From: a virus
Direction: 5' to 3' (one strand)
DNA length: 64,000 nucleotides
Virus record (IMG/VR): IMGVR_UViG_3300035190_001334
Coordinates: 1-64,000 of that record
Every line of letters starts with the position of its first letter. The first letter of the stretch is position 1. This document shows positions 3,507 to 54,724 of the stretch, in pieces. Made by a program: the position numbers and the translations under genes. The notes under the pieces are model-generated. The model saw only the letters and a list, made by a program, of their open reading frames with translations, made no database searches and had not been told where the DNA came from.

Positions 3507-3984
3507 ATGCTAGCATCCCCACCCCCCGATGAGCCTATCCACAATTTTGACTTTTCCCTACTAAGTAAGCGCATCGCTGAAGTAAAGGACGCGAACGCCA
3601 CAATGTCTCAAAAGCAACTCGCCAAATCTTTCATTAAAAACAGTATCTTACCTGTTCTAAATACCCCTCAAATCTACCAGATGCTTCAAAACCCTGCATT
3701 TGTAGACCAATTTACAGAATTACTCCTCGGATTCCTTATTACTGCACCTAAAGTTGCACCTCCTAAGCCCAATGAGCTATAAAATAATCTGCTCTTATCG
3801 AGGCACACCGATGAAATCGACAGTCGGACTACCAATTGGCGTTCGACTGTTTCCTCCAGATGCAAATTACTCATACAGCCGCGTGGAAATTGAAACAAAA
3901 ACGCAGTTGACACCTGAACAAGAAACGAAGTTGTTCAAAATACTTGAGAATTGGTTCTTACAACTGAAAAAAGAGTCTGCATAA
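3507..3984 (+). CDS. Two small hypothetical proteins (3507-3782, 3811-3984)
   Basis: ATG-started ORFs upstream of nrdA. Confidence 0.55.
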
Positions 3985-3988
3985 ATGC

Positions 3989-4018
3989 TTGCAGAAAAGA
4001 AAGTTTCGATGCTACACT
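3989..4018 (+). promoter_or_regulatory. Sigma70-type promoter of nrdAB
   Basis: TTGCAG-N18-TACACT with extended TGn, in the intergenic gap. Confidence 0.55.
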
Positions 4019-4045
4019 AGATAAACCAAAACGACAAAAGACATA

Positions 4046-6289
4046 ATGCAAGTAACAAAACTCGACGGCTCGTTGCAAAATCTTGACTACCAAAAGATTC
4101 ACGCAATGGTTGAAATCTGTGCGGCTGGAATCGAAAATGTAAGTGTTTCAGACGTAATCATGGGCGCGAAACTTAACTTCTACGATGGCATCTCAACTCA
4201 AGACATTCAGACTGCACTAGTGAAAAGCGCTGAGAACTTGATGACTGCGCGTAACCCAAATTATTCACTGCTTGCTGGGCGTTTACTTCTTACTCAACTT
4301 CGTAAACAGGTGTGGGGCGAGTGGTCAGTACCCCATCTTTCGGACGTAGTTTTTGCCAATACTTTGCGCGGATTTTATGATGAGGAGCTACAAGGATTTT
4401 ACTCTGCTGAGGAGTGGAATGAACTTAACGACTACATCAATCACGACCGAGACTTAGATTACACTTCCGCTAGTATTCAGCAATTCAAAGACAAGTACAG
4501 CGTCAAGAATCGCGTCACTGGACAGATTTACGAGACTCCACAAGTAGCTTATATGCTCATTGCTGCTGCTGGGTTTGCTCACGAAGATAAGGCGATTCGG
4601 GTGCAGTTTGTCAAAGATGCCTACGACGCTTTCTCAACTGAAGCTATCTCGCTTGCCACACCTATCCGCGCAGGAATGCGTACAAGCTCCAAGCAATATG
4701 CAAGTTGTGTACTAATTGCGGCAGATGATGACCGTAAATCGATTGCTGCGGCTCAGTCTGCGATGATGGAGTATGTTTGTTTGCGAAGTGGTATTGGTGT
4801 TGACTTTGGAAGATGGAGAGCGCTCAATGCCCCTATCCGCAATGGCTCTGTCAAGCACACTGGAGCAATTGGTTTCCTCAAGTCCTACGAAGCTACAATC
4901 AATGCCTGTAGCCAAGGTGGGGTTCGGAAGGGTAGCGCGACAATGTTTTACCCTATCTGGCACAAGGACGTACTTTCTTTTCTGCCTCTGACGAACGGGA
5001 AGGGAACCGAAGAGACTCGTACTCGCGGATTGGATTACGGAATCGCCACTTCCAAGATTTTCTATGAAAGATTGCAAGATGAGGGGGAAATCTGTTTATT
5101 CGACCCCAACGATTTGAAAGCTAAGTATAACATCTATGAGAACTTCGGACTAGAATCTTTTGATAAATTGTACCTAAAAGCAGAAGTTGACCCTGATATC
5201 CCCAAGACAAGAATCAGTGCGGTAAAACTTTGGACATTGATTGCTCAAGAAAGAGCCGAGACAGGTCAAGTTTATATTCTAAATATTGACCATGCAAATA
5301 GCCACAGTTCTTTTACTGTACACATTTCCCAAAGCAATTTGTGTGTCGAAATAACAGAGCCAACTACACCTTTCTACTCTCTTGATGACCCAAATGGGGA
5401 GATTGCAACCTGTATTCTTGCTGCACTTAATCCTGCAAAAATAAGAAGTCGTTTAGATTACCAGAAATCTTCCCGTATCATTGTCCGTTTTCTTGATAAC
5501 GTTATTGAACATCAAGATTACCCTTTCATCATGGCTGAAAATGGTTCTAAGGCTCGTCGTTCAATTGGTGTAGGTTTTAATGACTTTGCACATTGGCTGG
5601 CTCTAAATGACTTCAAATGGGGTAGTGACGAGATGCTAGAGGAAGTACACAATCTAGCTGAAATGCACCAGTACTACTTACTTAAAGCTAGTAATGAATT
5701 AGCTATTGAAAAAGGAGCTTGCAGTAAATTCAATGAAACCAAGTACTCGAAAGGCATTCTCCCAATCGACACCTATTATAAAAATGTAGATAGCTTGGCG
5801 GCTCCTATTTATGTATATGACTGGGAGGCACTTCGAGCATCTATTTTAGAACACGGTCTTCGTAATAGCACTCTCACCGCGCAAATGCCTTGTGAGAGCA
5901 GTAGTTTGACGGGAAGTGGCTCTACAAACGGCATCGAGCCTCCACGTTCAGCTATTGGCATCAAAGATAGCAGCACCAACACACTCAAGTTCGCTATCCC
6001 TGATGTAGATAAAGTTGAGTATGAATATGCTTGGTCTTTCTCTTCTAACGAAGCTTACCTGAACACTGTCGCAGTCATTCAGAAGTTCTTTGACCAGTCC
6101 ATTAGTGCAAACACCTATTACAATCCTCTTCTGTACCCAGATTCAAAAGTACCTCTTCAGGTAGTTCTCGATGACCTCATTTATGCTTATAGTATTGGTC
6201 TGAAGAGTTTGTATTATCACAACACTCACGATATGTCCGACAACGGATTATCTTCTTCTTCTTGCAGTTCTGGAGCTTGTGCATTGTAA
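4046..6289 (+). CDS. nrdA: Class Ia ribonucleotide reductase alpha subunit
   Basis: N-terminal ATP cone (VTKLDGS), ETPQ, ASCVL, SNLCVEI, GLRNSTLTAQMP, KSLYY, C-terminal CSSGAC. Confidence 0.97.
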   Translation: MQVTKLDGSLQNLDYQKIHAMVEICAAGIENVSVSDVIMGAKLNFYDGISTQDIQTALVKSAENLMTARNPNYSLLAGRLLLTQLRKQVWGEWSVPHLSDVVFANTLRGFYDEELQGFYSAEEWNELNDYINHDRDLDYTSASIQQFKDKYSVKNRVTGQIYETPQVAYMLIAAAGFAHEDKAIRVQFVKDAYDAFSTEAISLATPIRAGMRTSSKQYASCVLIAADDDRKSIAAAQSAMMEYVCLRSGIGVDFGRWRALNAPIRNGSVKHTGAIGFLKSYEATINACSQGGVRKGSATMFYPIWHKDVLSFLPLTNGKGTEETRTRGLDYGIATSKIFYERLQDEGEICLFDPNDLKAKYNIYENFGLESFDKLYLKAEVDPDIPKTRISAVKLWTLIAQERAETGQVYILNIDHANSHSSFTVHISQSNLCVEITEPTTPFYSLDDPNGEIATCILAALNPAKIRSRLDYQKSSRIIVRFLDNVIEHQDYPFIMAENGSKARRSIGVGFNDFAHWLALNDFKWGSDEMLEEVHNLAEMHQYYLLKASNELAIEKGACSKFNETKYSKGILPIDTYYKNVDSLAAPIYVYDWEALRASILEHGLRNSTLTAQMPCESSSLTGSGSTNGIEPPRSAIGIKDSSTNTLKFAIPDVDKVEYEYAWSFSSNEAYLNTVAVIQKFFDQSISANTYYNPLLYPDSKVPLQVVLDDLIYAYSIGLKSLYYHNTHDMSDNGLSSSSCSSGACAL

Positions 6290-19622: not shown

Positions 19623-19654
19623 GTTGTGACCTGCAAGGTTTTATTTATTCTACC

Positions 19655-41886: not shown

Positions 41887-42552
41887 CTATTCTAGCGCAT
41901 TATAAGCATAGGCTAATTTCTCTTCGTCAGTGGCATTGCGCCAGCCCTCCCATTTAGGTTTTGTATTCCTTATTCTGCGATACAAAGTATTAAGCAATAC
42001 TTGTTCCGCTTCGGCTGCAATTTTTCTTGTTGGGTAGTATTTCCCGTTTATCATAACTGGCAAAGTTCTCCAGTGGTTCTCCCCACTAATTTTCTCTAGA
42101 GTTTCTTTAGATTTAAGCTTGCCGAGTTTTGCTATATGCTCTGGACTAAGTTTTCTACCCTTTTTCGCCTTGCTTAGCTTCTTCTTGTGTTCCTCGGTGA
42201 ATTTCTTACCCTTTTTCACAGCACTAAGTTTAGCCCTCATTTCTGGGGTTTGAATGCCCCCACCATAACCTCCAAGACAGATATTATAGGTATCGGGACG
42301 CTCTATAAATTCCTGAGTGACCATTTCAGCTTCAGCCAAATAAGCACCCTCAGCACAGGAAAATTCTGCAAGAGTAATCCTGCTAAAATTAGCTCTTCCA
42401 TATTTTTCAATAGCTGGTTTTAAGGCATAGCCACTGCCAAGATAGCGTTTGGAGTCAAAGGTATCGGTCAGTCTATGTACCCCAACATAAATCCTGCCAT
42501 TGCAAACGTTCGTAGTTTGATATAAAATCCAAGTCTCTTTATCTGTTTCCAT
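41887..42552 (-). CDS. GIY-YIG homing endonuclease with NUMOD3 repeats (cassette 1)
   Basis: ILYQTTN..NGRIYVGVH, YLGSG, KYGRANF, YNI..GG, TEEHKKKLS. Confidence 0.9.
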   Translation of the reverse strand: METDKETWILYQTTNVCNGRIYVGVHRLTDTFDSKRYLGSGYALKPAIEKYGRANFSRITLAEFSCAEGAYLAEAEMVTQEFIERPDTYNICLGGYGGGIQTPEMRAKLSAVKKGKKFTEEHKKKLSKAKKGRKLSPEHIAKLGKLKSKETLEKISGENHWRTLPVMINGKYYPTRKIAAEAEQVLLNTLYRRIRNTKPKWEGWRNATDEEKLAYAYNALE

Positions 42553-42574
42553 TGCAAATATACCTTACCTGAGT

Positions 42575-42593
42575 TATAATAATAAGTATAACA
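42575..42593. promoter_or_regulatory. Bidirectional promoter/operator of cassette 1
   Basis: Reverse complement of TGTTATACTTATTATTATA; 18/19 identical to 53852-53870. Confidence 0.7.
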
Positions 42594-42608
42594 CACTGTG
42601 AGTACAAA

Positions 42609-42752
42609 ATGCGTCCTGATAAAAGTAAAAGATTGAATGTGAAATTGTCCGTAAAAAGACACGAAAAATTAGTAAAGTATGCCGAGTCTCAAGATAAAGA
42701 TATGACCTCTGTTATTGAGTGTTTTATTGATTCTCTTCCCAACATAGAATAA
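42609..42752 (+). CDS. Ribbon-helix-helix microprotein (cassette 1; not in track)
   Basis: MRPDKSKRLNVKLSVKRHEKLVKYAESQDKDMTSVIECFIDSLPNIE. Confidence 0.75.
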   Translation: MRPDKSKRLNVKLSVKRHEKLVKYAESQDKDMTSVIECFIDSLPNIE

Positions 42753-42755
42753 ACG

Positions 42756-43502
42756 ATGCCAGATTTCACCTTCCCTAAAATCTCAGGTTACGAGTTCCTT
42801 GCGCCCCGCAACCAAGTGAGCTTCCCCTTTCAAACAATCTTTGCTGCTGATGACTTTGCCTTACACGATAGCTTAAACGGTTCGTATGATAAACATTTCC
42901 CCCTTTATACCCTTACCAACATAAAAAATGCAGGTAGCGACTGGCGACCCAGCATCAACCTTATCAGCGCCACAGGAACTGAAAAAAAACTAACAGGCGC
43001 ACTCACACCAATAATCTACAAAGACAAAATCAACAGGCGAGAATATGGTCGCAAAGAACAGGTGCATCCCCAACTTGGCAACAGTAAACTAGTCTTGAAC
43101 CGCATATACTACCGAGAATTTCTGATACCTAAATTTGACCCTCGATATTCCTTAATTATCGATAAAAAGTTCATCACCAACACAATTCAAAGACCAGCAG
43201 AGCAAGCTATAGACATCGGTAAAGCCACTTCTAGCGTCCTAGAGGCGTTTCCAAGAGGTAGTCTCGTCAAATACTCCAACTATTACTGGAGATGCCTTAA
43301 AGCCACTAAAGCCTACCCTACAGCTACCGATTCTGACTGGCAGCAACTTCCTGAACGACAATCCATTTTCACTGCTGACATTTACTCAATTTTTGGCAGT
43401 GATGTGCAATATTTGCAAACTTACAGCGAAGACCGTAATTTTCGACCTGAACAACAAGATACCTCTCTGGTTACATATAATGTTTCGTGCTTTTATGGTT
43501 AG
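42756..43502 (+). CDS. Putative virion protein with a short CBM5/12-like motif
   Basis: FPRGSLVKYSNYYWRCLKA...P.....WQQL. Confidence 0.5.
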   Translation: MPDFTFPKISGYEFLAPRNQVSFPFQTIFAADDFALHDSLNGSYDKHFPLYTLTNIKNAGSDWRPSINLISATGTEKKLTGALTPIIYKDKINRREYGRKEQVHPQLGNSKLVLNRIYYREFLIPKFDPRYSLIIDKKFITNTIQRPAEQAIDIGKATSSVLEAFPRGSLVKYSNYYWRCLKATKAYPTATDSDWQQLPERQSIFTADIYSIFGSDVQYLQTYSEDRNFRPEQQDTSLVTYNVSCFYG

Positions 43503-43510
43503 ATAGAGAT

Positions 43511-43662
43511 ATGATTACAATAATTTTGATTGTGTTAGCAGTGCTTGGCGCTGGAGTTAGGATTTACTTCTACAAAGAAATTTTAGATTTAATTGAGAAA
43601 AATAAATGATTACTTGGATTTTGGCTGTTTGGCAACTTATGAAGTTTGTTCCTTGGAGATAA
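43511..43662 (+). CDS. Two hydrophobic micropeptides (43511-43609, 43606-43662)
   Basis: MITIILIVLAVLGAG...; MITWILAVW...; ATGA coupled. Confidence 0.45.
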
Positions 43663-43715
43663 TATACTTCTTAAGATAGATATACATAAGTGTATATTGT
43701 GCTATATTGAAAATA

Positions 43716-43793
43716 AGCAGAGATTAAGCTATGATGCGCTTCTGAGTCTCATAAACTTTTGCATATTGGGTTTGAATCCCAACTCTGCTACCA
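43716..43793 (+). tRNA. tRNA-Met/Ile2 (CAT), atypical
   Basis: AGCAGAG/CTCTGCT-A-CCA; CT-CAT-AA loop; weak D and anticodon stems; TTTGAAT T-loop. Confidence 0.65.
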
Positions 43794-43796
43794 AAA

Positions 43797-43868
43797 CCGA
43801 AAGTAATTCATTGGTAGAAGTGCCGCCTTGGACGCGGAGAGTAGTTAGTTCGATTCTAACCTTTCGGA
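43797..43868 (+). tRNA. tRNA-Pro (TGG)
   Basis: CCGAAAG/CTTTCGG; CT-TGG-AC loop; GTTAG-TTCGATT-CTAAC. Confidence 0.85.
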
Positions 43869-43870
43869 TT

Positions 43871-43953
43871 GGCTTGATTGCCAAAACAAAACACCCTTCC
43901 GAGTGTCTCGGATTGCTTAGTGAAAGTGGCAGCTTCAACGCTGCATCAAGCCT
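43871..43953 (+). ncRNA. tRNA-like RNA or pseudo-tRNA
   Basis: GGCTTGAT/ATCAAGCC stem, GCAGC-TTCAAC-GCTGC arm, TCCGAG/CTCGGA arm, no D-stem. Confidence 0.5.
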
Positions 43954-44005
43954 AATATTGGTTTGGTTCCCACAGGTGGTCATGGAAACTAATATTGGTG
44001 TTCAT

Positions 44006-44078
44006 GCGGCTTTAACTCAGAGGCAGAGTGCTTCGCTTCCAACGAAGAAGTCGGTGATTTCAAAATTCCCAAGCCGCT
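44006..44078 (+). tRNA. tRNA-Gly (TCC)
   Basis: GCGGCTT/AAGCCGC; CTTCG-CTTCCAA-CGAAG; imperfect T arm. Confidence 0.8.
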
Positions 44079-44081
44079 TAA

Positions 44082-44153
44082 TCCTAATTAGCTTAATGGT
44101 AAAGCGTCATTCTGTTAAAATGAAAGATTTTAGTTCGAGTCTAAAATTAGGAG
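44082..44153 (+). tRNA. tRNA-Asn (GTT)
   Basis: TCCTAAT/ATTAGGA; TCATT-CTGTTAA-AATGA; TTCGAGT. Confidence 0.9.
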
Positions 44154-44156
44154 TCT

Positions 44157-44228
44157 GGGTAATTCGCTCAGTGGGAGAGCATACGGCTTTTAACCGTACA
44201 TTCCTGAGTTCAAATCTCAGATAACCCT
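44157..44228 (+). tRNA. tRNA-Lys (TTT)
   Basis: GGGTAAT/ATAACCC; TACGG-CTTTTAA-CCGTA; TTCAAAT. Confidence 0.88.
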
Positions 44229-44306
44229 TTGTGCTTAGCTCAGTTGGATTAGAGCATTGAGTTTCTACCTCAAGAGTCGCTGGTTCGAGTCCAGCAGCAC
44301 AAGCCA
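44229..44306 (+). tRNA. tRNA-Arg (TCT)
   Basis: TTGTGCT/AGCACAA-G-CCA; TTGAG-TTTCTAC-CTCAA. Confidence 0.9.
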
Positions 44307-44309
44307 AAT

Positions 44310-44381
44310 GCCCAAATAGCTCAGTGGGAGAGCAGTGGTTTTGTAAACCAAAGGTTGTCAGTCCGAATCTGACTTTGGGCT
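44310..44381 (+). tRNA. tRNA-Thr (TGT)
   Basis: GCCCAAA/TTTGGGC; TGGT-TTTGTAA-ACCA; T-loop TCCGAAT. Confidence 0.85.
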
Positions 44382-46309
44382 TAATCCTTAATTTCAATAT
44401 TTTCTCGCCCATTCTCCACAAAGCCGCTTGGGAAGAGCGACGGCTGTTCCCCTAGCTCTGCTTGCTGTTCAGGGTTTGGCGCGAACACCAGAAGTGATTC
44501 CGAGTCATTTGCAGCAATAGGTCTGTACCCAATATTGTAAGTACTAATTCCTCCAGCACCAAAGCTCCCTAATATCTGATTGTAGACGTTTATATAAGCG
44601 TTCTGGCTATTAAGTGCATTTGGGGGATAGAAGCCTGACACAGCCGCAAAACCCGACTGAGGTATTGTAACTGAGCTATCGTAATACCTATCGCCAGAGG
44701 ACGAATTACTAACAACTCTACGTGGATTTACTTGATAGTAGTAACAGCCATCGTGCGAAAATAGTGGCGGCATCGAGTATTTCAACACAAACTCAAAAAT
44801 ACCTTGCCTGACAGCAAAAAAGCCACTCTCAGGGTTTATTGGCGTACTCCAAGTAGTCATAGCTCTATTGGGTATGTCCGTCTTTATGAGCGCACCATAA
44901 GGGTTAGTACCATCTACGAATAGCTGCCCTTTCATTTTTTCACCTGTAAGACGATTAATACCGTAAGTGAACTGATTTTTAACTGTTGGGTAGACATCTA
45001 AAATTTTTCCATAAGCCCACCAATACTGATATCCCCAAGAATAACTAACGCCCCTCTCACCTTGCGCGTGTTTGATGTCATAAGGTTGCTCAATTTTTCC
45101 TTCTGCCATGCCCATATCAAGTCGCAGCATATTTACACCTTCCTTAGAAGCCGCTAGTACTCCAAAAGGATTAGGTCGCAACACATTTGATTCTTGCTTA
45201 TATTTGTGTAAACTGAATCTAGCTTCATCAGTCCCGTAGTCAGGGTCTTTTCGCTTAGATGCAAGTCGATAGTTGGTATTTCCGACATAAGTGGCTTGGG
45301 AGTTGCAGGTTTCAGTGATTGTTTTTTGAGTCAGGTAATTAGCTGACATTTCAGGACGCAAACACAAGTCAAGGGCATAGTTCGAGTTCCTTTTCTGCAC
45401 AAGTACCGAAGTTTCGTCAAAAGCTTGTTGGTCAAATTGCACGGAGGCATTTCTACTGCGTTTCCTAAGTACTGACTGCCCTCTGCACCAAGTAAATGAA
45501 TATGTTGGTGTAACACTGTAGGAAACAACCGTAACACCTAATCTTGACTTACCGTTACTGATTTGCTTATATCTGCTATCATCTCTCGGCGCAAACCCGT
45601 AAACAGGAATTTTGTCGTCTGAGTCGATAGCTAAAGCGCCCCAAATACCTCCCCCCAAGTATTTAAGTGACTCCAGAGAGAAATTCTCCTTGAAACAACT
45701 AGGAACTCCAGTATCATCAAGGTTAAGCTCATATACTGTCTTTTCTGTAACAGCTATTCCGTCGTTAGCTGGTGATATGTCTGCGTTGTCGATAGTAACC
45801 AAACGCCAGTCCACATCTTTTAAGCCATATTGCCTAGTAACAACAGATTTAACATAGGCAAGATGTACAGACCACCCTTCTCGGTTTCTAGAGTTTGCTG
45901 TGACGTAAGCGCGAATTTGGGTCTGGTAGCTATCACAGAAAAAAGTGAAGATTGGTTCGTTAACGCCGTACAGGTCTTCATCGACGAAAACTGAGAAGTA
46001 GTTGATAAGGTCTTCTTCTGTCTCTGGGAACTTAACTGGCGCTGGCAGAGGGAATTGGGCTAGCACAGCGCTTCTCTCTAGGTTGGCTTGAGCTATACGC
46101 AATCTAGCAGTTACTGTTTCAAGTGACAACCCTTCAAGTTTGCGAACAGTCACAAGTTTAAAGAGCGACTCATTGGATGTTTTTTGCTTTGTTCGTTTTT
46201 GTACTTTCGTATCTACCGTCGATTGGTTGGAAACTAGAAGCCACTCATTCGTCTGGCTTTCTTGTAACCAAATTTTTCCTGTGGAATCACGTTTAATAAA
46301 TCTTCCCAT
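44381..46309 (-). CDS. Hypothetical, probably virion protein
   Basis: 642-aa ORF in the - strand structural block. Confidence 0.55.
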   Translation of the reverse strand: MGRFIKRDSTGKIWLQESQTNEWLLVSNQSTVDTKVQKRTKQKTSNESLFKLVTVRKLEGLSLETVTARLRIAQANLERSAVLAQFPLPAPVKFPETEEDLINYFSVFVDEDLYGVNEPIFTFFCDSYQTQIRAYVTANSRNREGWSVHLAYVKSVVTRQYGLKDVDWRLVTIDNADISPANDGIAVTEKTVYELNLDDTGVPSCFKENFSLESLKYLGGGIWGALAIDSDDKIPVYGFAPRDDSRYKQISNGKSRLGVTVVSYSVTPTYSFTWCRGQSVLRKRSRNASVQFDQQAFDETSVLVQKRNSNYALDLCLRPEMSANYLTQKTITETCNSQATYVGNTNYRLASKRKDPDYGTDEARFSLHKYKQESNVLRPNPFGVLAASKEGVNMLRLDMGMAEGKIEQPYDIKHAQGERGVSYSWGYQYWWAYGKILDVYPTVKNQFTYGINRLTGEKMKGQLFVDGTNPYGALIKTDIPNRAMTTWSTPINPESGFFAVRQGIFEFVLKYSMPPLFSHDGCYYYQVNPRRVVSNSSSGDRYYDSSVTIPQSGFAAVSGFYPPNALNSQNAYINVYNQILGSFGAGGISTYNIGYRPIAANDSESLLVFAPNPEQQAELGEQPSLFPSGFVENGRENIEIKD

Positions 46310-47055
46310 TATGCAATAGGAATTTTTGTAGAAACTGGAGATTGTGTTGCAAATTTATTACGAATATATCTTGCGCCTTTAGTGATGCCAGTTCCATCTG
46401 CTGTGGCACGACCAGCAGCACCTAGAAATGCCCCTGTAACTGCACCTTGAGCGCCACGTCCAATCATCTTGCCAACCCGACCTAAGCCAGATGTATTAGC
46501 CATCTCTTCTTCTGACTCTCCAAGACCGCCTCCTTTAGCCAATCCCGCACCAAGACCGACAAGACTGCCAATTTTAGCTGCTCCGCCAATGCCGAAATTT
46601 GCAAAATGCTGGAAATTACCTGAAAATCCTCCATATTGACCAGTTTGGAATTGTTGTTGACTTTTCCAATTTCCGACACTCATCTTCTTGCGAACCACAC
46701 CTCCTGCATCATAAAATTCATCAGGAGCAAGAGGTTTTTGACCGTTTCTAGGCGCTTGTTGCTTGCTAAGACCTCTACCTACCGATTGCGATGCCAAAGC
46801 TTCTGTACGTGCGTCTGGAGCAGTGCCATATTTAATATTTGCAGAACGTTGGTCGCGAGTTAATGAAAATGGCGAGTTATTTAGCTTCTGATTGCCAATG
46901 GCAGCTACATTTTTCTGGTTGAAAGCATCTATAACACCTTGCTTTGTTTTAGGTTGATTAGCAAATTGTTGACCTTTGTTTTTCAAAGTGTTTAGTACTG
47001 CTTGACCTTGAGTAGCCAAGTTTTTAAAGAAGAAGTCGGAGGTTTGGTATGCCAT
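46309..47055 (-). CDS. Basic Gly-zipper protein of the ANF-motif family
   Basis: QHFANF at aa 149-154, followed by GIGGAAKIG and Gly zippers. Confidence 0.7.
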   Translation of the reverse strand: MAYQTSDFFFKNLATQGQAVLNTLKNKGQQFANQPKTKQGVIDAFNQKNVAAIGNQKLNNSPFSLTRDQRSANIKYGTAPDARTEALASQSVGRGLSKQQAPRNGQKPLAPDEFYDAGGVVRKKMSVGNWKSQQQFQTGQYGGFSGNFQHFANFGIGGAAKIGSLVGLGAGLAKGGGLGESEEEMANTSGLGRVGKMIGRGAQGAVTGAFLGAAGRATADGTGITKGARYIRNKFATQSPVSTKIPIA

Positions 47056-47097
47056 TATTTAATTGGTAGTGAAAGTCTTTACTCTAGTTTATCATTG

Positions 47098-50000
47098 CTA
47101 GTTTTTCGGCAAAGGTAAATTTGGAGGGAGAAAGTCAGTAGTGTACCGAGATTGACCTAGCGTGACTCTGAATGATTGAATATATCCTGAAAAATTGGTT
47201 ATGCTATAACCAATATTTAAATTTTCCGTCCAATTCATATTTATATTCTTAGTTTTGTCGCGAAGCTCTCCCTCGACAAAAAGACGAGAGTAGCCATTTT
47301 TATTCGTAAGAGCTAAATGGAACCACTTTTTCGGTTCTATGTCTTCAGCAACCATCGGACTTGTATAGTTCGGTTGGCTCTTGTAACAGCGAATGGTCGC
47401 CTCATCATTGAATGCAAATATTCTGGGATTATGTTGACCTGAAGACAAAATACCTTGCAAAATTGAATCAGAATTATATGAACTACCGCTTAAAGAGTTT
47501 ACATCACCTACTATCGGCTCTGGAACATACTCAACCGCATCTGCTGCGCTCCCAATCACTATATTGTTGCTCCGAGTAAATAATCCCGAAACGGCTTGGA
47601 TACTTGTGTTGAAAGTGCTGGATAACGAGGTGTAAACTTTATACCCTATACTTCCTGCACGTTTTTGCCACTCCGCAACAAACCCATTAGCTCCCTTAAC
47701 TCTATTTTCTGCCACTTCTGGAGATTCAATCGCTGAATCACTAGTAACCGAAACGCTATTAACATCGCCAACCAATTTATTGTCAAATCCATCTACTTTC
47801 CTTGAAAAATCACTCGTATTTGATATATCAACAACATAATCAGTAGCTCCAACAATATCGCTCCAACTAATATCAAACGATGTAGGAGTAACCGACGATG
47901 CAGGGCTTGCAATAGGGGCAGAAAGAGAGAATGTGGTCAGCGAGGATAAATAGATGTAGAACTCAATGCAATAGTCCTGATTGGCGCTCAGTGGCTGCTG
48001 AAGCGTGGCAACAATGCTTGAACCCTGACCATTAAACCGCATAGACTTTAACAAGCCAGTAGGATACTCATCTCCGACTACATCGACATTATTTACTGCA
48101 AGTGTGACCTCATACTGGCTCTCGTCAACGATATTCGTTCCAGTGGGTTGAAGCAGCAGCAATGTTTGGTTGTAGTACGGGTCGGGCAAATAATCAGGAA
48201 CCACAGCAGTCCTAGTAAGTGTGTTTGACGCTTGATTCAAAGTGCCAATTGCCGATGCGACCGTATTTGCCGCCACTGAGACTGAAAAAGTACCACTTGT
48301 GAGCGCCTGAATTTCAAACGAGTAGCTATTGTTGTTACTTGCCTTGAGAAGACCACCCACAATACAATTAGTCAGTGTCAGAGCCGCCAAACTGAAGGCT
48401 GGAGCATCTTTGTTGAGAGTAACTGTCGCATATAGCTTGTAGCTGTTATCGTTAGACTGAGTAGTGGCAAAAACAATAGTGAAAGGACTATTCTCTACAA
48501 AAACGGCTGTATTGTTGGTAGTTGCGCTGAAATCCTTGTTTGGTAAGCTTGGCTCATTGTGAATTGCTATGTTGAAGTACACTTTCTGGTCAGTTACTTC
48601 GTTTTCCAATAATAGCGTTGCAACATAAGTGTTGTACTGAGTATTCACAACGTCAGCAGATTGCCCTAGAATCGTCACTACAGGCAAGTTAGTAAGCTCG
48701 ATGATGCTATTGAAGGTCAGCGACAGTGTATTGCCATTGACAGCCTTATTTGACACGTAGTTGTCCGATACCAATGAAATGTAGTCGAGCAATTCTGTTA
48801 CATCAAGAATATTTGTAACAAGTGGGTATGGTATTAGAGGTACATCGTGTTGGTAAGCTGTGTAGAGAGCTTTTCCAACTGTGAGGCGTAAGTTCGACAA
48901 AAAGTACGGTGCTTGAGTGACGCGATTTTTGTAGTAGCCAATTTTTAGGTCGCCACTAGAGATGTTGATAACATTACCTGACTGCACAAGCCCAATTCGT
49001 ACTCCATTACGATAAAACCGATAGACATTGCCTTTTTTCGTAATTGCAAAATGAGGGAATTTCTGCTGTAAGGTGTATGCTCCATTCTCGTATGCTGGAT
49101 AAACTGGATTGTTACCTGAAAATACGTCTGTCTCAGCTAAAGTAACCCCAGAGAACAAGCTAGTAGGTAAGTCGATGCTTCGAGCCATGACTATGTTGCC
49201 ATTAACCGCTAGAACTGCAAAACCAAAACCAGACTTCTCGACAGAAAAGAGATGAGCTGTATTCTGAGGGCTAAAAGTGTTGCCGCGATAGTGAAATTCG
49301 ATAGTCCAATCCCCAGTAAGCACTAACGATGAACTTTGACCAATGGCTTCAAAATTATCGTAAGTCAGTCCAGACTGCTCTAATTGAGGCACTACCGCCA
49401 AAGAACTATCTGTACCTATAGGAAACACCGTAGAAGAAAATAACGTGTTGTTGGTGACTATTTCAGCTAGTTGATATTGGTTTGGTGAAACATCATTGAT
49501 TGTGGTTGATAACTGAAAAGGTAGTTGCAAAATTGGGAAAGATTCAGCATAAATCCGTGCAAGCAAGTTACTTTTTGATGAGCTAATGTTAGAGTCCGTT
49601 ATACCAGCACCTTCTAGCGCCTGAACATACACCACACCTTGTTTTTCGGGAGTTATGTTGAATTGGTAAGTCTGCTTCAACTCGTCAATCAAATTTAGGT
49701 TGGACAAAACGCCATTTGAAACACCTATTTTGCTAATGTCGAACGTAGTGATAGCTGCATCCCAAGTAATTGTGCAACTGAAAGCTTCGTTAATGTAAGG
49801 GCTTGAACCGCTTGTTATGGTGGGTACAGGTGCATTTTTGTTGATGACATACGATTGACCTTCAAAGCTTAACTCACCTGTGTAATTCGATATAAGTGTT
49901 GAGATGCCTTTATATCTGACCGTTCTCCTATCTACAAAATTTAAGCCTAGTTTGCCATTACCAGTTCCAGTTGTGGCTGTAACAACGTACTCAAGCTCGT

Positions 50001-52029
50001 TATTTTTGACAATGGTAGTCAGTGCCGCGCCAGCCACACCTTCTATCTGAGAAAGGCTAAAATCCGCAAGAACCAAGTTATCAACTGCTTGTGCAAGGTA
50101 AACATACCACTGACAAGTGCTGGTGCTAATAGATGGGGTAGTGACGACAGTAACAATAGCCAAAATTCGTGCTTTGGGGTGGGTCAGCACGTTAGTTGTC
50201 AAAGGCAGAGGTTGTAGGCAGTGATTATAGAAATAGTCGTTAGGGACGGTCGAACTTACAAAGCGGTTGGCATTGGTGACGCGCAAACCCTTAACACCTA
50301 AAGTTCTTGTAGCCCCTCCACTAGATGATACCCAAGGCTGATACAGACTGCCAAATTTAAGTTCGAGTTTGTTTGTCTCTTGATACAGAGTGCCAGCGTA
50401 GGCAACCGTTTTTACATTGACTCCGTTGATATAGAAGTACAAAAAGCCGTCTTCCCTTGAAACAGCTAAATGAGTGTTAGGTTCGCCAAAAACCGACGCA
50501 ATTTTCACTGTGCTGGTAGTGATATTAGAGTTGATGGAGCCATTGTTGTAGAAAAGAATGTCTGTGCTAGGTAAAACGTAATCGGTCAAAGTACTGCCCC
50601 GTCGAGTTACTAAGTTGCCAGTTTCAGAGCTAAAAGTCTTCCAATTAATGCCATCTTCGCTGCAACTAAAGCTGAGATATGCCCCAAGCCTTCTGCTACT
50701 ATTTTGTAAGTCAGAGTAAAAGCTAAAGTCAATGCTGGCAACTAGTTTGTTATTAGAGGTGAGCGACAGCAGATTAACCTTTTCAACACCATCTGTATCT
50801 GAAATATTGAGACTTAGCCATTCCTCTAAAGTTTTGTTCTGCAAAAGACCAGCATTATTCTCAAAAAGACCAAGATAAAGCTCCATAGTCCATCGGGAAG
50901 TAGATAAATTGGTCGTAATCTGCTCAGAGGTGTAAGTGGTGTTGCCTTCAAGTTCTAAGAAGCCGCTATTGAAGTTTGGTACTTTCTTGCGTAGCTCTGT
51001 GTTACTAAGTCGCTTGAAATTTGGTGCATAGTTGTAGGCATCAAACTGTAGAGGGAAATTGAACAAAGTATCTGCATAACTAGCATCAACTCTGTTAGCT
51101 ACAGCGTTTTTTGGCAGTGGTAGTGTGTAATTGTAGAAAGAGGAAGGATATCTAGAGACAGTTTTGGTGATTCTGAAGTTGGAGATGCCGCCACTAAAAC
51201 TTGCATCAATCATATTGGTCGAAATAAAACCAATCAGTGAGTCAGCAAGAAGTGGCGCTCCCAAAGAAAGCCTTGTTAGCGCAGTGTCAGCGTTGTCAGC
51301 AGCATTGAAAGTTAAGTTGTAGGAAAAAGCGTAGATGTTTGTTTGTGTGAAATTGATGTAAGTTTTTAGTTGATTAGCTTCCCTGACAATTGCGACTGTG
51401 TAAAACTGATTGACGGCTATTGGTGAGGTGTTTATTTTGAAGGTCGCACCTTTAGAGTAGAAATAAAGGTCTGTGTTCAGTAAAAATAGTCCGTAGCCGT
51501 TGGTGCTATTGTTACCAGTAGAAATAATTGGTGTTTGTCTGTAATCACCTGCATTGATTTGTATACAAGCCCCCATACCAAAAACAGTTTGAACTGGGTA
51601 AATTGTGTCTACATAAAAAGACAAGTCAATAGTGAAATTATCCGTACCTAAACTAAACCCCTCAGAATATCCACTTAGTTGCACATCACAGTAGCTTGGC
51701 TTGACTAACGATTCACCTTGCCCTAGATTAAGTTCCGCAGCCCTACTGATGCGATTTACTGCGTTTGGGATGCGTAGACATGAACTGACACCTGCAAGAG
51801 TCGGTATTCCTGTGGTTGGGTAATTTATTGCAGAATCGATGCTTGTTCCAGTGAAATTTTTGACATGGCGCTGAAAACGTGAATAATCACGGCTAAATGG
51901 CAGACCTCGGCTGTTATCGCTGGCGCTTCCTGAGATGAGCAAGATAACGTCATTGAAATATACGTCCTCGACCACAGAGTTAGTGGCATCAGCGCTTGCT
52001 AGGTATTTTGCGAGAGTCTTTCCTTCCAT
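47098..52029 (-). CDS. Very large tail protein (multiple LamG, Ig-like and FN3 domains)
   Basis: LGTDNFTID, WTIEF, HFAI, LSNLRLTVGKALYT, Ig-like TITWD..IT.F, FRVTLGQSRYT. Confidence 0.8.
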   Translation of the reverse strand: MEGKTLAKYLASADATNSVVEDVYFNDVILLISGSASDNSRGLPFSRDYSRFQRHVKNFTGTSIDSAINYPTTGIPTLAGVSSCLRIPNAVNRISRAAELNLGQGESLVKPSYCDVQLSGYSEGFSLGTDNFTIDLSFYVDTIYPVQTVFGMGACIQINAGDYRQTPIISTGNNSTNGYGLFLLNTDLYFYSKGATFKINTSPIAVNQFYTVAIVREANQLKTYINFTQTNIYAFSYNLTFNAADNADTALTRLSLGAPLLADSLIGFISTNMIDASFSGGISNFRITKTVSRYPSSFYNYTLPLPKNAVANRVDASYADTLFNFPLQFDAYNYAPNFKRLSNTELRKKVPNFNSGFLELEGNTTYTSEQITTNLSTSRWTMELYLGLFENNAGLLQNKTLEEWLSLNISDTDGVEKVNLLSLTSNNKLVASIDFSFYSDLQNSSRRLGAYLSFSCSEDGINWKTFSSETGNLVTRRGSTLTDYVLPSTDILFYNNGSINSNITTSTVKIASVFGEPNTHLAVSREDGFLYFYINGVNVKTVAYAGTLYQETNKLELKFGSLYQPWVSSSGGATRTLGVKGLRVTNANRFVSSTVPNDYFYNHCLQPLPLTTNVLTHPKARILAIVTVVTTPSISTSTCQWYVYLAQAVDNLVLADFSLSQIEGVAGAALTTIVKNNELEYVVTATTGTGNGKLGLNFVDRRTVRYKGISTLISNYTGELSFEGQSYVINKNAPVPTITSGSSPYINEAFSCTITWDAAITTFDISKIGVSNGVLSNLNLIDELKQTYQFNITPEKQGVVYVQALEGAGITDSNISSSKSNLLARIYAESFPILQLPFQLSTTINDVSPNQYQLAEIVTNNTLFSSTVFPIGTDSSLAVVPQLEQSGLTYDNFEAIGQSSSLVLTGDWTIEFHYRGNTFSPQNTAHLFSVEKSGFGFAVLAVNGNIVMARSIDLPTSLFSGVTLAETDVFSGNNPVYPAYENGAYTLQQKFPHFAITKKGNVYRFYRNGVRIGLVQSGNVINISSGDLKIGYYKNRVTQAPYFLSNLRLTVGKALYTAYQHDVPLIPYPLVTNILDVTELLDYISLVSDNYVSNKAVNGNTLSLTFNSIIELTNLPVVTILGQSADVVNTQYNTYVATLLLENEVTDQKVYFNIAIHNEPSLPNKDFSATTNNTAVFVENSPFTIVFATTQSNDNSYKLYATVTLNKDAPAFSLAALTLTNCIVGGLLKASNNNSYSFEIQALTSGTFSVSVAANTVASAIGTLNQASNTLTRTAVVPDYLPDPYYNQTLLLLQPTGTNIVDESQYEVTLAVNNVDVVGDEYPTGLLKSMRFNGQGSSIVATLQQPLSANQDYCIEFYIYLSSLTTFSLSAPIASPASSVTPTSFDISWSDIVGATDYVVDISNTSDFSRKVDGFDNKLVGDVNSVSVTSDSAIESPEVAENRVKGANGFVAEWQKRAGSIGYKVYTSLSSTFNTSIQAVSGLFTRSNNIVIGSAADAVEYVPEPIVGDVNSLSGSSYNSDSILQGILSSGQHNPRIFAFNDEATIRCYKSQPNYTSPMVAEDIEPKKWFHLALTNKNGYSRLFVEGELRDKTKNINMNWTENLNIGYSITNFSGYIQSFRVTLGQSRYTTDFLPPNLPLPKN

Positions 52030-52084
52030 CAGACCATTATAACTTGCTGGCGCTCATTTCTTTCTGTCTACGAACGTCAGTGAG

Positions 52085-53683
52085 CTACCCTGCATCAGTA
52101 GTAGCAATCTTACCACGCTTCTTTACCACTCCAACACTATCCTTACGGGCTGAAAAAAGTATGATGTCAGATTTGCCATTTCCCGACAAAACTGGAGTTG
52201 TCCCACTAGGGAACAAGATAGTGTTGTCAAAAGCTACCGCACCTGTATTCTGTACCAATTCGACAATAAGTGCTTTAGTTTGATTATTGGCAAGCGTAGC
52301 GGTAAAGTTAATGTTAGTGATGGTGTTGCTTATATCTGCAACTGGAGTTTTTAAGATGAGGTAGTCATAATCTGCGTCAAGGTCGATTGTGTAGTTTGTC
52401 GGTGAGGATATTGTCACGGTGTTGGTCTTTATTTGGTCGCCAAGAGCCGTTATCACTTCGTTAGATAGCTTTGCCAGTCCAACGCTTCCGTCGGGCAATG
52501 CAGGATTAAAAACGACCCATCTACCAGTGGTCGGATTAGTGTTAGGAATCAGAACTGTGTCGCCGTTGTCGGACGCAGTGGATGCAGCATCGTACTTGTA
52601 AGGTCTATTGACCGATTCAACCAAACGCACTTGACCAGACTTGTATTGCACTGAGTTCAAGCTCTTGAGCGCCGCAATGTTGTCCACTGGCGCGTCCCAG
52701 AAAAGAAGGTCTTGTAGAAGCGCGTAATTGACCAGCTTGGGGTAGATACTGATGAAACTTTGTGCCGATACTCCGTCTAGAAGCTGTGAAGATGGTGTGA
52801 CTTCAATTACCACTGCTGAACCATCGGGGATGCCCTTGTTGAGCGCAATATCAAGCGTAGGGTACTCTTGCACCACTCCAAGGTTGTCGATACCAGTTGT
52901 ATCCAAGGCGAAAGAGGTGAGGTTTAAGTATCCAATAATCTTGACACCAAAGACGAGCCGTATAGCTGGGTCAGAGGTGTATTCGCTTAGATTGAGACGT
53001 AAACCCGTCAAAGTACCGCCAGTGTCGTTCACAATCCAGTATTTGATAGGGACTGGAATGGAATTGATGTTTTCGAGTGGGGCAACGAGTAGTGTCTCTT
53101 GGTCAGCGCTGATTACGTCAATTTCGGCTAACGAAGTGGTTTCGTAGAGGCTTGCTTCTCTAGTCTTGAACCAGCGACCGCTATTGTGTGCTAACACAGT
53201 AATATTATCGACACTTTCTACCGAACCGCTAACAAATTCGTAGCAGAAACCATTGGAATTTAAAGCTGCCCTAGTTCCCGTCAACAACCCAGTAAGATTA
53301 CTGATATCTGAAGGATTATTATATGTAGAGTTATTTAAAACAGATAAAGTTACATTAGTCGGAGTAACAGGTGTTATATAGTCTGCGGCAAAATGAGAAA
53401 ATTTGTATATTACCCTACTAGTTGTATAAGTATTGGTACTAGATATAGAAATAAGAGACTCTTTTACATCTTCATAGCCCAACGTGGTGAAGGTATCCGA
53501 AGAAATTACTATCGAGCCACTAGAAGATACTGTAATACTTGCAGATGGGGATGGTACAGTATACCCAGCCCTATTTCGCCTAACAAGCCACAGATAATAT
53601 GTCCCAGCCGCAAGGCTACCTCCTCCTACTGTTGATACTGTAGGGGCTACCAGTGTTTTACTTGAAGCATAGATAGTTTTCAT
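52085..53683 (-). CDS. Tail fibre/spike attachment protein
   Basis: GSLAAGTYY, two GRW modules, LPDGSV..AKLS. Confidence 0.7.
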   Translation of the reverse strand: MKTIYASSKTLVAPTVSTVGGGSLAAGTYYLWLVRRNRAGYTVPSPSASITVSSSGSIVISSDTFTTLGYEDVKESLISISSTNTYTTSRVIYKFSHFAADYITPVTPTNVTLSVLNNSTYNNPSDISNLTGLLTGTRAALNSNGFCYEFVSGSVESVDNITVLAHNSGRWFKTREASLYETTSLAEIDVISADQETLLVAPLENINSIPVPIKYWIVNDTGGTLTGLRLNLSEYTSDPAIRLVFGVKIIGYLNLTSFALDTTGIDNLGVVQEYPTLDIALNKGIPDGSAVVIEVTPSSQLLDGVSAQSFISIYPKLVNYALLQDLLFWDAPVDNIAALKSLNSVQYKSGQVRLVESVNRPYKYDAASTASDNGDTVLIPNTNPTTGRWVVFNPALPDGSVGLAKLSNEVITALGDQIKTNTVTISSPTNYTIDLDADYDYLILKTPVADISNTITNINFTATLANNQTKALIVELVQNTGAVAFDNTILFPSGTTPVLSGNGKSDIILFSARKDSVGVVKKRGKIATTDAG

Positions 53684-53687
53684 TATC

Positions 53688-53834
53688 TTATTTTAACACT
53701 ACCACTTCAGGCAAAGAATCAATCCAGTCTTCAAAAAGTACCGTCATGGCTCTGTCTCTGGACTCGGCGTAATTTTTAAGCTTTGTCATGCGTTTCTCTG
53801 ACAAAGTGGCGTTGAATCTCTTATCTTTACTCAT
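53688..53834 (-). CDS. Ribbon-helix-helix microprotein (cassette 2; not in track)
   Basis: MSKDKRFNATLSEKRMTKLKNYAESRDRAMTVLFEDWIDSLPEVVVLK; paralog of 42609-42752. Confidence 0.75.
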   Translation of the reverse strand: MSKDKRFNATLSEKRMTKLKNYAESRDRAMTVLFEDWIDSLPEVVVLK

Positions 53835-53851
53835 GATTAGTGTCAATGTTA

Positions 53852-53870
53852 TGTTATACTTACTATTATA
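53852..53870. promoter_or_regulatory. Bidirectional promoter/operator of cassette 2
   Basis: TGTTATACTTACTATTATA: extended -10 on +, TATAAT on -. Confidence 0.7.
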
Positions 53871-53892
53871 TCCTAGAAAACGATATTACGCA

Positions 53893-54672
53893 ATGACAAA
53901 AGATAAAGATACATGGATTTTGTATAAAACTGAAAATTTGGTAAATCATAGAAGTTATGTTGGAGTGCATAAACTTGCCGACAACCTACGCTCTAAGAAT
54001 TACCTTGGTAGTGGAAATAATATAAAGACAGCTATAAAGAAATACGGAAGAGAAAATTTCATTAGAACTACACTTGCAGAGTTTGCTTGTGCCGAAGACG
54101 CTTACTCGGCTGAAGAAAAGATGGTAACTGAGGAATTTATTAAACGTAAAGATACTTATAACATAAGTCTTGGTGGTCGTGGTAGTTCCAAACATACGGA
54201 AGAAGCTAAGGCGAAAATTGCTATTTCACACAAGGGGAGAGAGTTTACGGAGCAACATAGGGCAAAAATCAGCGCGTCAGCAAAAGGTAGAAAGATGACT
54301 GAAGAAACAAAAATGAAAATTGCGATTGCAAACACAGGAAAAAAGCATACAGAAGAAACAATGAAAAAACTTCGAGGTAGAATTGTCAGCGAAGAGACTA
54401 GAGCAAAAAGTGCGGAGATATTTAGGGGTAAAACGCACACAGAGGAGGCAAAAAGTAGGATGAGCGAGGCAGCTAAACTTAGAACTGGTGCTAAAAATCA
54501 TTCAAGTATAGCAGTAGTGATAAATGGTAAATATTATGAAAATGCACATATAGCATCCCCCTTAGAACAAACACATTATCAAACTATAGTAAGTAGACTA
54601 AAATCGCCAACAGCTAAATGGTCTGAATGGCGCTATGCTACTGAAGAGGAAAAATTGTCCCACCAGATGTAG
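53893..54672 (+). CDS. GIY-YIG homing endonuclease with NUMOD3 repeats (cassette 2)
   Basis: MTKDKDTWILYKTEN..SYVGVH, YLGSG, HTEE repeats; start reassigned by alignment to cassette 1. Confidence 0.9.
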   Translation: MTKDKDTWILYKTENLVNHRSYVGVHKLADNLRSKNYLGSGNNIKTAIKKYGRENFIRTTLAEFACAEDAYSAEEKMVTEEFIKRKDTYNISLGGRGSSKHTEEAKAKIAISHKGREFTEQHRAKISASAKGRKMTEETKMKIAIANTGKKHTEETMKKLRGRIVSEETRAKSAEIFRGKTHTEEAKSRMSEAAKLRTGAKNHSSIAVVINGKYYENAHIASPLEQTHYQTIVSRLKSPTAKWSEWRYATEEEKLSHQM

Positions 54673-54724
54673 TTGTGATGGTCGGTACAGGTAAGGTCTT
54701 TGACGCTGCGTAGGTAGTCTTCAT
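54638..54724 (-). pseudogene. Stranded original 5' end of the 52085-53683 tail gene
   Basis: MKTTYAASKTLPVPTITTTSGG vs MKTIYASSKTLVAPTVSTVGGG (14/22 identical). Confidence 0.8.

Follow-up and report, generated by a model that had tools for sequence, protein, structure and literature searches.

Homing endonuclease genes must avoid harming their carrier, and in phage T4 this is achieved through borrowed promoters, RNA hairpins and the nuclease's own DNA-binding domain. The immI region of phage P22 combines two ribbon-helix-helix (RHH) repressors, Arc and Mnt, with the overlapping divergent promoters Pant and Pmnt. The free-standing seg and mob genes of T4 embed promoters for downstream genes and have no known accessory repressor gene; all of the free-standing endonuclease genes except segD are co-oriented with their neighbors, and I-TevI uses its DNA-binding domain to repress the promoter of its own gene (PMC2988022). 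Arc proteins of the IS605 family bind over -35 and -10 elements and repress divergent promoters, and homing endonuclease genes are frequent Arc neighbors (Moon, Zedaveinyte, Wiegand & Sternberg, bioRxiv 10.64898/2026.09.24.754181). Here, we describe two related loci in the first 64 kb (64,000 nucleotides, the window) of the 145,466-bp virus record IMGVR_UViG_3300035190_001334. Each locus is a copy of a mobile unit, and its two genes were inserted together relative to sister phages. We consider both loci to be, more likely than not, mobile cassettes of Pseudanabaena-type cyanophages that join a GIY-YIG/NUMOD3 endonuclease gene, a two-way promoter of 55-60 bp and a gene for a 47-50 residue Arc-like RHH protein, and that probably operate by a self-limiting mechanism.

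As in the IS605 elements, a tiny RHH gene lies head to head with a selfish nuclease gene over a short intergenic region with two opposed promoters. The relationship extends to sequence: two relatives found with the RHH profile (L146, L147) lie 56-58 bp from divergent TnpB (OrfB_IS605) genes, and the profile matches P0022, P0028 and P0019 and the loci L055 and L149 are divergent to OrfB_IS605/TnpB or TnpB-like genes. The partner differs, both in the window and across the 18 cassette variants: it is a protein-guided GIY-YIG/NUMOD3 endonuclease instead of TnpB, and the cassette is without TnpB, TnpA, guide RNA or transposon ends. The setting is also different, namely a lytic-type cyanophage with the empty and filled alleles typical of homing, in which a phage structural gene directly adjoins the RHH gene and probably draws transcription from it. 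The preliminary description of this DNA knew of no earlier account of such a pairing. That statement needs correction, because the RHH belongs to an Arc-like family found head to head with TnpB, and the preprint both shows repression and mentions homing endonuclease neighbors. That passing remark (bioRxiv 10.64898/2026.09.24.754181) is the only reference to a homing endonuclease-RHH cassette that our literature search returned, and the cassette goes unmentioned in the publications describing PA-SR01 and the Pam phages. The arrangement is therefore not new in principle; it is best seen as a form of the self-limiting Arc-nuclease module in which a GIY-YIG homing endonuclease takes the place of TnpB. 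Two features would be additions to the known module, the apparent takeover of the downstream gene's expression and the apparent replacement of the target gene's 5' end.

The T4 segA-G genes are alike in that GIY-YIG and NUMOD3 domains are encoded between or at the edge of phage genes and that their presence varies among relatives; part of the window DNA resembles segE. Unlike the T4 genes other than segD, the nuclease gene here points away from the downstream target at every site and opposes its neighbors at all sites except the portal site, with the second gene restoring the sense direction. In this clade, repression appears to be the task of a separate gene whose product acts in trans and which is carried along with the nuclease gene; the repressor gene also seems to take the place of the target gene's control region and, at one site, of its first codons. 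P22 immI shares an RHH protein of about 50 residues encoded first on its transcript, overlapping opposed promoters and self-limited expression. It differs in controlling an antirepressor in a temperate phage, with no mobile nuclease cassette, and there is no detectable close sequence relation (the Pfam family Arc is matched by only 2 of 83 relatives of the small protein).

The cassettes measure roughly 0.9-1 kb, and this cyanobacterial virus carries two (Table 1). The open reading frames (ORFs) bear out the preliminary description in that each endonuclease gene has a divergent paralogous ORF of 47-48 codons: the two small proteins are 55% identical (E 1e-14) and the two endonucleases 44% identical (E 2e-72). 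For comparison, 32 loci were drawn from metagenomes and IMG/VR, yielding 18 distinct cassettes. Empty sites were provided by metagenomic contigs (including L058) and by the Pseudanabaena phages PA-SR01 and Pam2, relatives of the window with approximately 74-80% nucleotide identity in matched pieces.

Both sites occupied in the window are empty in relatives. At the portal site (site A, cassette 1), the divergent portal and 248-aa genes are separated by 42 bp in PA-SR01 and Pam2 and by 896 bp in the window, where the interval contains the endonuclease gene, the spacer and the RHH gene. Alignment to the empty site places the insert at about 41896-42755, and both genes are missing from site A in PA-SR01, Pam2 and L058. 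At the tail-gene site (site B, cassette 2), 2 nt lie between the 56-aa gene and the tail-fibre-like gene in PA-SR01, and the cassette separates them in the window. The reverse also occurs. In PA-SR01, a pair made up of QIW88487 and QIW88488 lies downstream of the 1630-aa gene, and the Pam2 pair consists of Pam2_85 and an RHH gene at 80701-80847 (ON014754.1), between Pam2_84 and Pam2_86. Sites C and E are filled in PA-SR01 and Pam2 and empty in the window (47056-47097 and 19623-19654). Mapped onto the genome of the window, the 18 distinct variants occupy at least five insertion sites, and a single 40-kb contig carries two copies (L044, L051). The absence of both genes from empty sites and the presence of the pair at no fewer than five loci mark the two genes as a single insertion unit, which agrees with the two-gene mobile unit that had been postulated. 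The RHH gene of Pam2 is unannotated in GenBank record ON014754.1; genes of 47-50 codons that annotation overlooks can belong to mobile elements.

The boundary of the inserted DNA was originally placed directly after a shared EEKL motif of the endonucleases. This is roughly right, the flank similarity resuming within the last codons of the endonuclease gene in both copies. For cassette 1, similarity to the empty-site flank returns at the last two codons and the stop (41887-41895), and for cassette 2, similarity to the tail gene returns in the last few codons, from about 54659. A duplicated target remnant was also considered for cassette 1, but none was convincing: the sequence resembling the 248-aa gene start belongs to the endonuclease's conserved ATxEEK motif, and the match is probably due to chance.

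Two further observations concern the fate of these sites. In three metagenome contigs with a cassette upstream of a 631-aa gene (L033, L034 and L037), the endonuclease is split into ORFs of 201 and 73 codons beside an intact RHH gene; full-length counterparts of 285-291 aa are present in L035 and L036. Such splitting is the decay expected of homing endonuclease genes; the nuclease appears to be degenerating while the RHH head is kept. The tail-gene site of Pam2 instead has two paralogous genes, Pam2_42 (L006, 3116-3775) and Pam2_41 (3793-4395), which share an N-terminus (MQHF...FGYVKQANKQLKRLN), have no assigned function and gave no Pfam match. The site looks like an insertion hot spot.

Judged by their domains and by the filled and empty alleles, the endonucleases are free-standing, Seg-like GIY-YIG/NUMOD3 homing endonucleases. 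They match PHROG 314, "homing endonuclease," with E values of 3.7e-47 (cassette 1) and 2.3e-44 (cassette 2). NUMOD3 scores above the Pfam cutoff in cassette 1 and at E 4e-10 in cassette 2. Both window proteins alone fall below the Pfam cutoffs for GIY-YIG, and within the family NUMOD3 is found in 9/9 members and SegE_GIY-YIG in 8/9. By our reading of the family alignment alone, the positions where the catalytic Tyr, Arg, Glu and Asn would be expected show no variation, and a PDB sequence search with the endonuclease profile gave no match. The C-terminal tails differ by site, ending in ...ALE at the portal site and in ...EHHT after the 1643-aa gene.

The proposed coupling of the two genes would reside in the spacers. 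As the preliminary description noted, they are 56 and 58 bp long, share a motif and end in GCA ahead of the endonuclease ATG. The motif, TATAATA[A/G]TAAGTATAACA, spans 19 bp and occurs twice in the window against 0.03 expected; no third match was found anywhere in the 145,466-bp genome, looser forms included. A similar promoter at the empty portal site, TATAATAGGCATAACA, had suggested that the motif might be a phage-wide promoter, and this idea was dropped; a motif found only at two cassettes in a 145-kb genome is not a general promoter of the phage. Nor is the motif a single element, as had been thought. It consists of two overlapping -10 boxes, which lie 11-14 bp apart among the variants.

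Read directly, the sequence shows opposed promoter elements, in line with the bidirectional promoter proposed earlier. In a promoter scan, the rightward, RHH-facing promoter of cassette 1 (TTGCAA-17-TATAAT) has 10 of 12 consensus matches; the leftward one has an extended -10 element. The GCA ahead of the endonuclease ATG is conserved because the -35 element of the RHH promoter shares a base with the endonuclease start codon. This two-way layout is kept in 18/18 variants. Since each -10 box covers the expected start of the other promoter, polymerase probably occupies only one of them at a time.

The best candidate for the RHH operator is the sequence ATAACA, which is found 18-23 nt ahead of the RHH ATG in 17/18 spacers. 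It is absent from two RHH-less relatives (L064 and PA-SR01 QIW88510), and (G/T)ATAACA recurs in the TnpB-Arc spacers of distant members of the RHH family. The same RHH-less relatives (L064, 2220-3000; PA-SR01 MT234670, 75539-76466) have a divergent spacer of about 52-55 bp with GTGTAAAATAG in place of ATAACA, which may represent a second type of promoter head.

The cassettes also appear to affect the phage genes next to them. In every variant the RHH gene is co-oriented with the next phage gene, and the distance from its end to that gene's start ranges from a 1-nt overlap (TAATG) to about 25 nt. In the window these genes start at 42756 and 53683, which upholds the 3-4 nt separation given before. 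Site A insertions lie approximately 5 nt ahead of the 248-aa gene start. Among the junctions of 17 loci, all filled alleles begin this gene with ATGCCn (MPD or MPE), and the three empty alleles begin it with ATGAC(T/A) (MTD). Cassette 2 is inserted inside the 5' end of the tail gene. What was formerly the 5' end is still present, 2 nt past the stop codon of the 56-aa gene upstream, and extends in antisense into the 3' end of the endonuclease gene. Compared with this remnant, the working 5' end is alike in 14/22 residues with only 30/54 nt identical, so that many of the differences are synonymous. The first ~22 codons of the tail gene therefore have the appearance of a recoded replacement that arrived with cassette 2, and this recoding probably removes the cleavage site. 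In 1994, Paquin, Laforest and Lang reportedly described a mobile GIY-YIG ORF that brings a replacement gene end, in atp6 of Allomyces mitochondria. Cassette 2 is similar in displacing the resident end of its target gene, supplying a recoded copy and leaving a remnant. It differs in that the 5' end of a phage tail gene is concerned and that the replacement follows a separate RHH gene instead of being fused to the endonuclease ORF.

From these sequences we infer repression, transcription of the neighboring gene and cleavage, which could be linked as follows. The endonuclease and RHH genes would be switched on together from the overlapping promoters, because each -10 box overlies the other's start site. 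RHH dimers would then bind around ATAACA, where the RHH promoter's start region coincides with the endonuclease promoter's extended -10 element. Binding would shut both promoters and so confine nuclease synthesis to a brief pulse that limits itself. The RHH-side promoter would supply transcription, and possibly coupled translation across the 0-25 nt junction, to the downstream phage gene, whose own upstream signals would have been displaced by the insertion. Such supply would leave the phage almost unharmed by the cassette and make loss of the cassette difficult. The endonuclease would cut cassette-free alleles in co-infecting relatives, and repair would copy the cassette in. At the tail-gene site, the cassette would carry the recoded first ~22 codons along, probably removing the recognition site from its own copy. 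If this is correct, the Arc-type self-limiting switch, demonstrated so far in one IS605 preprint, extends to protein-guided phage homing endonucleases. It would also explain how an antisense-oriented nuclease gene can reside inside structural-gene operons, and the cassette would constitute a compact, self-limiting module for two-way expression.

Several points speak against this mechanism. Endonucleases of the same clade exist without an RHH gene (L064, at the portal site, and QIW88498 and QIW88510 of PA-SR01), and the RHH is thus not essential to the endonuclease. The -35 element of cassette 2 is poor and falls short of the strict -35 rule of the promoter scan. The distance of 11-14 bp between the boxes is awkward for a rigid two-dimer operator over both of them, and a fixed two-half-site operator across the -10 boxes was rejected on account of this variation. 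ATAACA could be conserved merely as the extended -10 element of the endonuclease promoter and, since the variants are related, its presence in 17/18 spacers does not amount to 17 independent observations. The Arc proteins assayed in the preprint may not be closely related to the window RHH. Finally, the RHH-promoter and nuclease parts have different histories, and the "one unit" is, by these alignments, a loose coupling.

The last point bears on a different explanation, in which only the endonuclease is selfish. The RHH and its promoter would be an independent, portable regulatory head that is exchanged by recombination and regulates downstream phage genes, for instance in their timing, not the nuclease, and the two would be adjacent because nuclease genes settle at such recombination boundaries. 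We regard this as rather unlikely. In its favor, between L022 and L024 the spacer and RHH gene are 88-97% identical in nucleotide sequence, while the endonucleases are only 40-70% and the downstream gene 55-72% identical. RHH similarity follows neither endonuclease similarity nor insertion site: the cassette 2 RHH is 95% identical to that of L050, located at another site, and one RHH type (91-95% identical) is found at sites B, C and D beside different endonucleases. Distant RHH relatives also adjoin genes other than nucleases, such as the Rha-like regulator gene in L053. These differing histories indicate that the cassette combines a head, made up of promoter and RHH gene, with a nuclease gene that changes faster and varies most in its C-terminal DNA-binding part. 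Against full independence, a divergent endonuclease gene lies 55-60 bp from every close RHH homolog (about 50% identity or more; 32/32 loci, 18 unique cassettes), and no close homolog without an endonuclease was found among the 32 loci. Every empty site is without both genes. Moreover, because the endonuclease-facing element and the RHH promoter overlap, whatever binds there would act on both.

The association is narrower when viewed from the nuclease. An RHH gene accompanies just the four nearest of the 80 top-ranking endonuclease relatives in IMG/VR; beside the other 76, no RHH-like divergent small gene was recognized, as judged by eye and without a Pfam scan of the ORFs. The expected pairing among homologous endonucleases thus holds at 32 loci but is confined to one clade.

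A broader proposal is that the Arc and two-way-promoter head is a freely exchangeable module, captured by TnpB in cyanobacterial insertion sequences (IS) and by GIY-YIG in phages. Phage and host Arcs could then cross-repress one another and form one regulatory network during infection, since the operator core ATAACA seems common to the phage cassettes and host IS605 elements. We think this unlikely. A distant member of the RHH family in the viral contig L055 (1737-6023) is located between a divergent TnpB gene and a gene for a 902-aa primase/helicase-like protein.

Self-limitation as outlined above relies on the small protein acting as a repressor, and models predict that it has an RHH fold, a conclusion that is as well supported as computation allows and that agrees with the preliminary assignment. 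The RHH (Arc/MetJ/CopG) superfamily has a beta-alpha-alpha fold of about 45 residues, and its members are obligate dimers whose paired beta-strands contact the operator. The AlphaFold2 (AF2) model, generated with 83 relatives, has a predicted local distance difference test (pLDDT) score of 91 and shows an extended segment (residues 1-14) and two helices (residues 15-27 and 32-42). The extended N-terminus fits a strand that pairs only in the dimer. This model replaced an earlier one from 17 close sequences, which had a pLDDT of 69 and no Foldseek match. The top Foldseek matches are ParG, PutA, AmrZ, CopG and Arc, with template modeling (TM) scores of about 0.7 and an RMSD (root-mean-square deviation) near 1 Å over 37 residues. 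When all PDB representatives were searched, nearly all of the top 50 were RHH proteins with Z values of 6.3 to 3.8 (Arc, Z 5.7), which are modest because the domain is tiny. Both searches return almost only RHH proteins, the structural neighbors being PutA, TacA, AmrZ, CopA, Arc, NikR, CopG, omega and ParD, and the all-PDB search adds VapB and MazE. At the sequence level, the window proteins alone match nothing in Pfam or, at E 0.12, RHH_5. The two fall under the same family profile, which was built from 17 close homologs and retrieves 241 cluster representatives at E ≤ 1e-3, and Pfam matches among the 83 relatives include DUF6364 (66/83), 56B_RHH (23/83) and RHH_10 (21/83), with others to CopG_antitoxin, RHH_1, ParG and Arc. 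In the PDB, the family profile matches the RHH domain of ParG (E 0.023); a PHROGs search with the RHH gave no match.

Many RHH proteins are type II antitoxins, and the family gives weak matches to CopG_antitoxin, Antitox_RHH, TacA and ParD, in addition to having TacA, VapB, MazE and ParD among its structural neighbors. With the nuclease as a plausible "toxin," the RHH could be an antitoxin-like or immunity protein that inhibits the endonuclease by contact, or shields phage DNA, rather than a transcriptional repressor. RHH antitoxins usually have a C-terminal extension that binds the toxin. The present proteins have 47-50 residues, with only about five after helix 2, leaving little room for such a tail. 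Unlike type II toxin-antitoxin pairs, the genes are divergent and do not form a co-directional operon, and RHH-less endonucleases persist in the same phages. An antitoxin-like or immunity function is therefore highly unlikely.

The substitution pattern indicates that the RHH gene is under strong purifying selection. The median ratio of nonsynonymous to synonymous substitution rates (dN/dS) is about 0.15. The proportions of nonsynonymous (pN) and synonymous (pS) differences are 0.03 and 0.71 between the cassette 2 gene (WINm, 53688-53834) and L050, and the other window gene (WINp) shows 0 nonsynonymous and 27% synonymous differences from L041. It is extremely improbable that the small ORFs and motif are conserved only through overlap with a promoter or leader, with no functional protein translated, as the lack of annotation in Pam2 and the E value of only 0.12 against RHH_5 might suggest; this selection already contradicts it, as do the 241 homologous representatives and the confident RHH model. 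The gene at 53688-53834 shares 91-95% protein identity with the RHHs of L050 and L033, yet 71-81% of synonymous sites differ, which implies either a very ancient split under extreme constraint or some pressure favoring difference in the DNA itself.

Table 1. Features of the two cassettes and adjoining genes, in window coordinates
Feature	Position	Strand	Remarks
Cassette 1 endonuclease gene, 221 aa	41887-42552	-	GIY-YIG, 2 NUMOD3 repeats, C-terminal DNA-binding region
Cassette 1 -35 element, TTGCAA	42552-42557	+	One base shared with endonuclease start codon
Cassette 1 spacer, 56 bp	42553-42608		Predicted overlapping two-way promoter
Cassette 1 -10 element, TATAAT	42575-42580	+	
Cassette 1 extended -10 element, TGTTATACT (TGnTATAcT)	42593-42585	-	Leftward, endonuclease-facing
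Cassette 1 ATAACA	42588-42593		Candidate RHH operator core
Cassette 1 RHH (Arc-like) gene, 47 aa	42609-42752	+	Stop 3 nt ahead of 248-aa phage gene
248-aa gene	42756-43502	+	Function not assigned; target/downstream gene of cassette 1
Tail-fibre-like gene, 532 aa	52085-53683	-	Cassette 2 target; Pam2 homolog annotated as tail fibre
Cassette 2 RHH (Arc-like) gene, 48 aa	53688-53834	-	Stop 4 nt ahead of 532-aa gene
Cassette 2 spacer, 58 bp	53835-53892		
Cassette 2 TGTTATACT	53852-53860	+	
Cassette 2 TATAAT	53870-53865	-	
Cassette 2 weak -35 element, TTGCGT	53893-53888	-	Overlaps endonuclease ATG
Cassette 2 endonuclease gene, 259 aa	53893-54672	+	GIY-YIG, 4-5 NUMOD3 repeats, C-terminal DNA-binding region
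Old 5' end of tail-fibre-like gene	54659-54724	-	Displaced remnant, reads MKTTYAASKTLPVPTITTTSGG; from alignment to PA-SR01 empty site

Two observations concern other parts of the genome. Five tRNA genes (Pro-TGG, Asn-GTT, Lys-TTT, Arg-TCT and Thr-TGT) are clustered at 43797-44381, between the 248-aa and 642-aa genes. Pam2 has four at the same place (Gly, Asn, Lys and Arg) and the PA-SR01 record has none annotated; the tRNA set thus varies. Beyond the window, at about 72,069-72,569 of the genome, weak similarity to GIY-YIG endonucleases (E 0.26-1.4) is found within a 420-aa open frame, which may be a different, more distant endonuclease gene.

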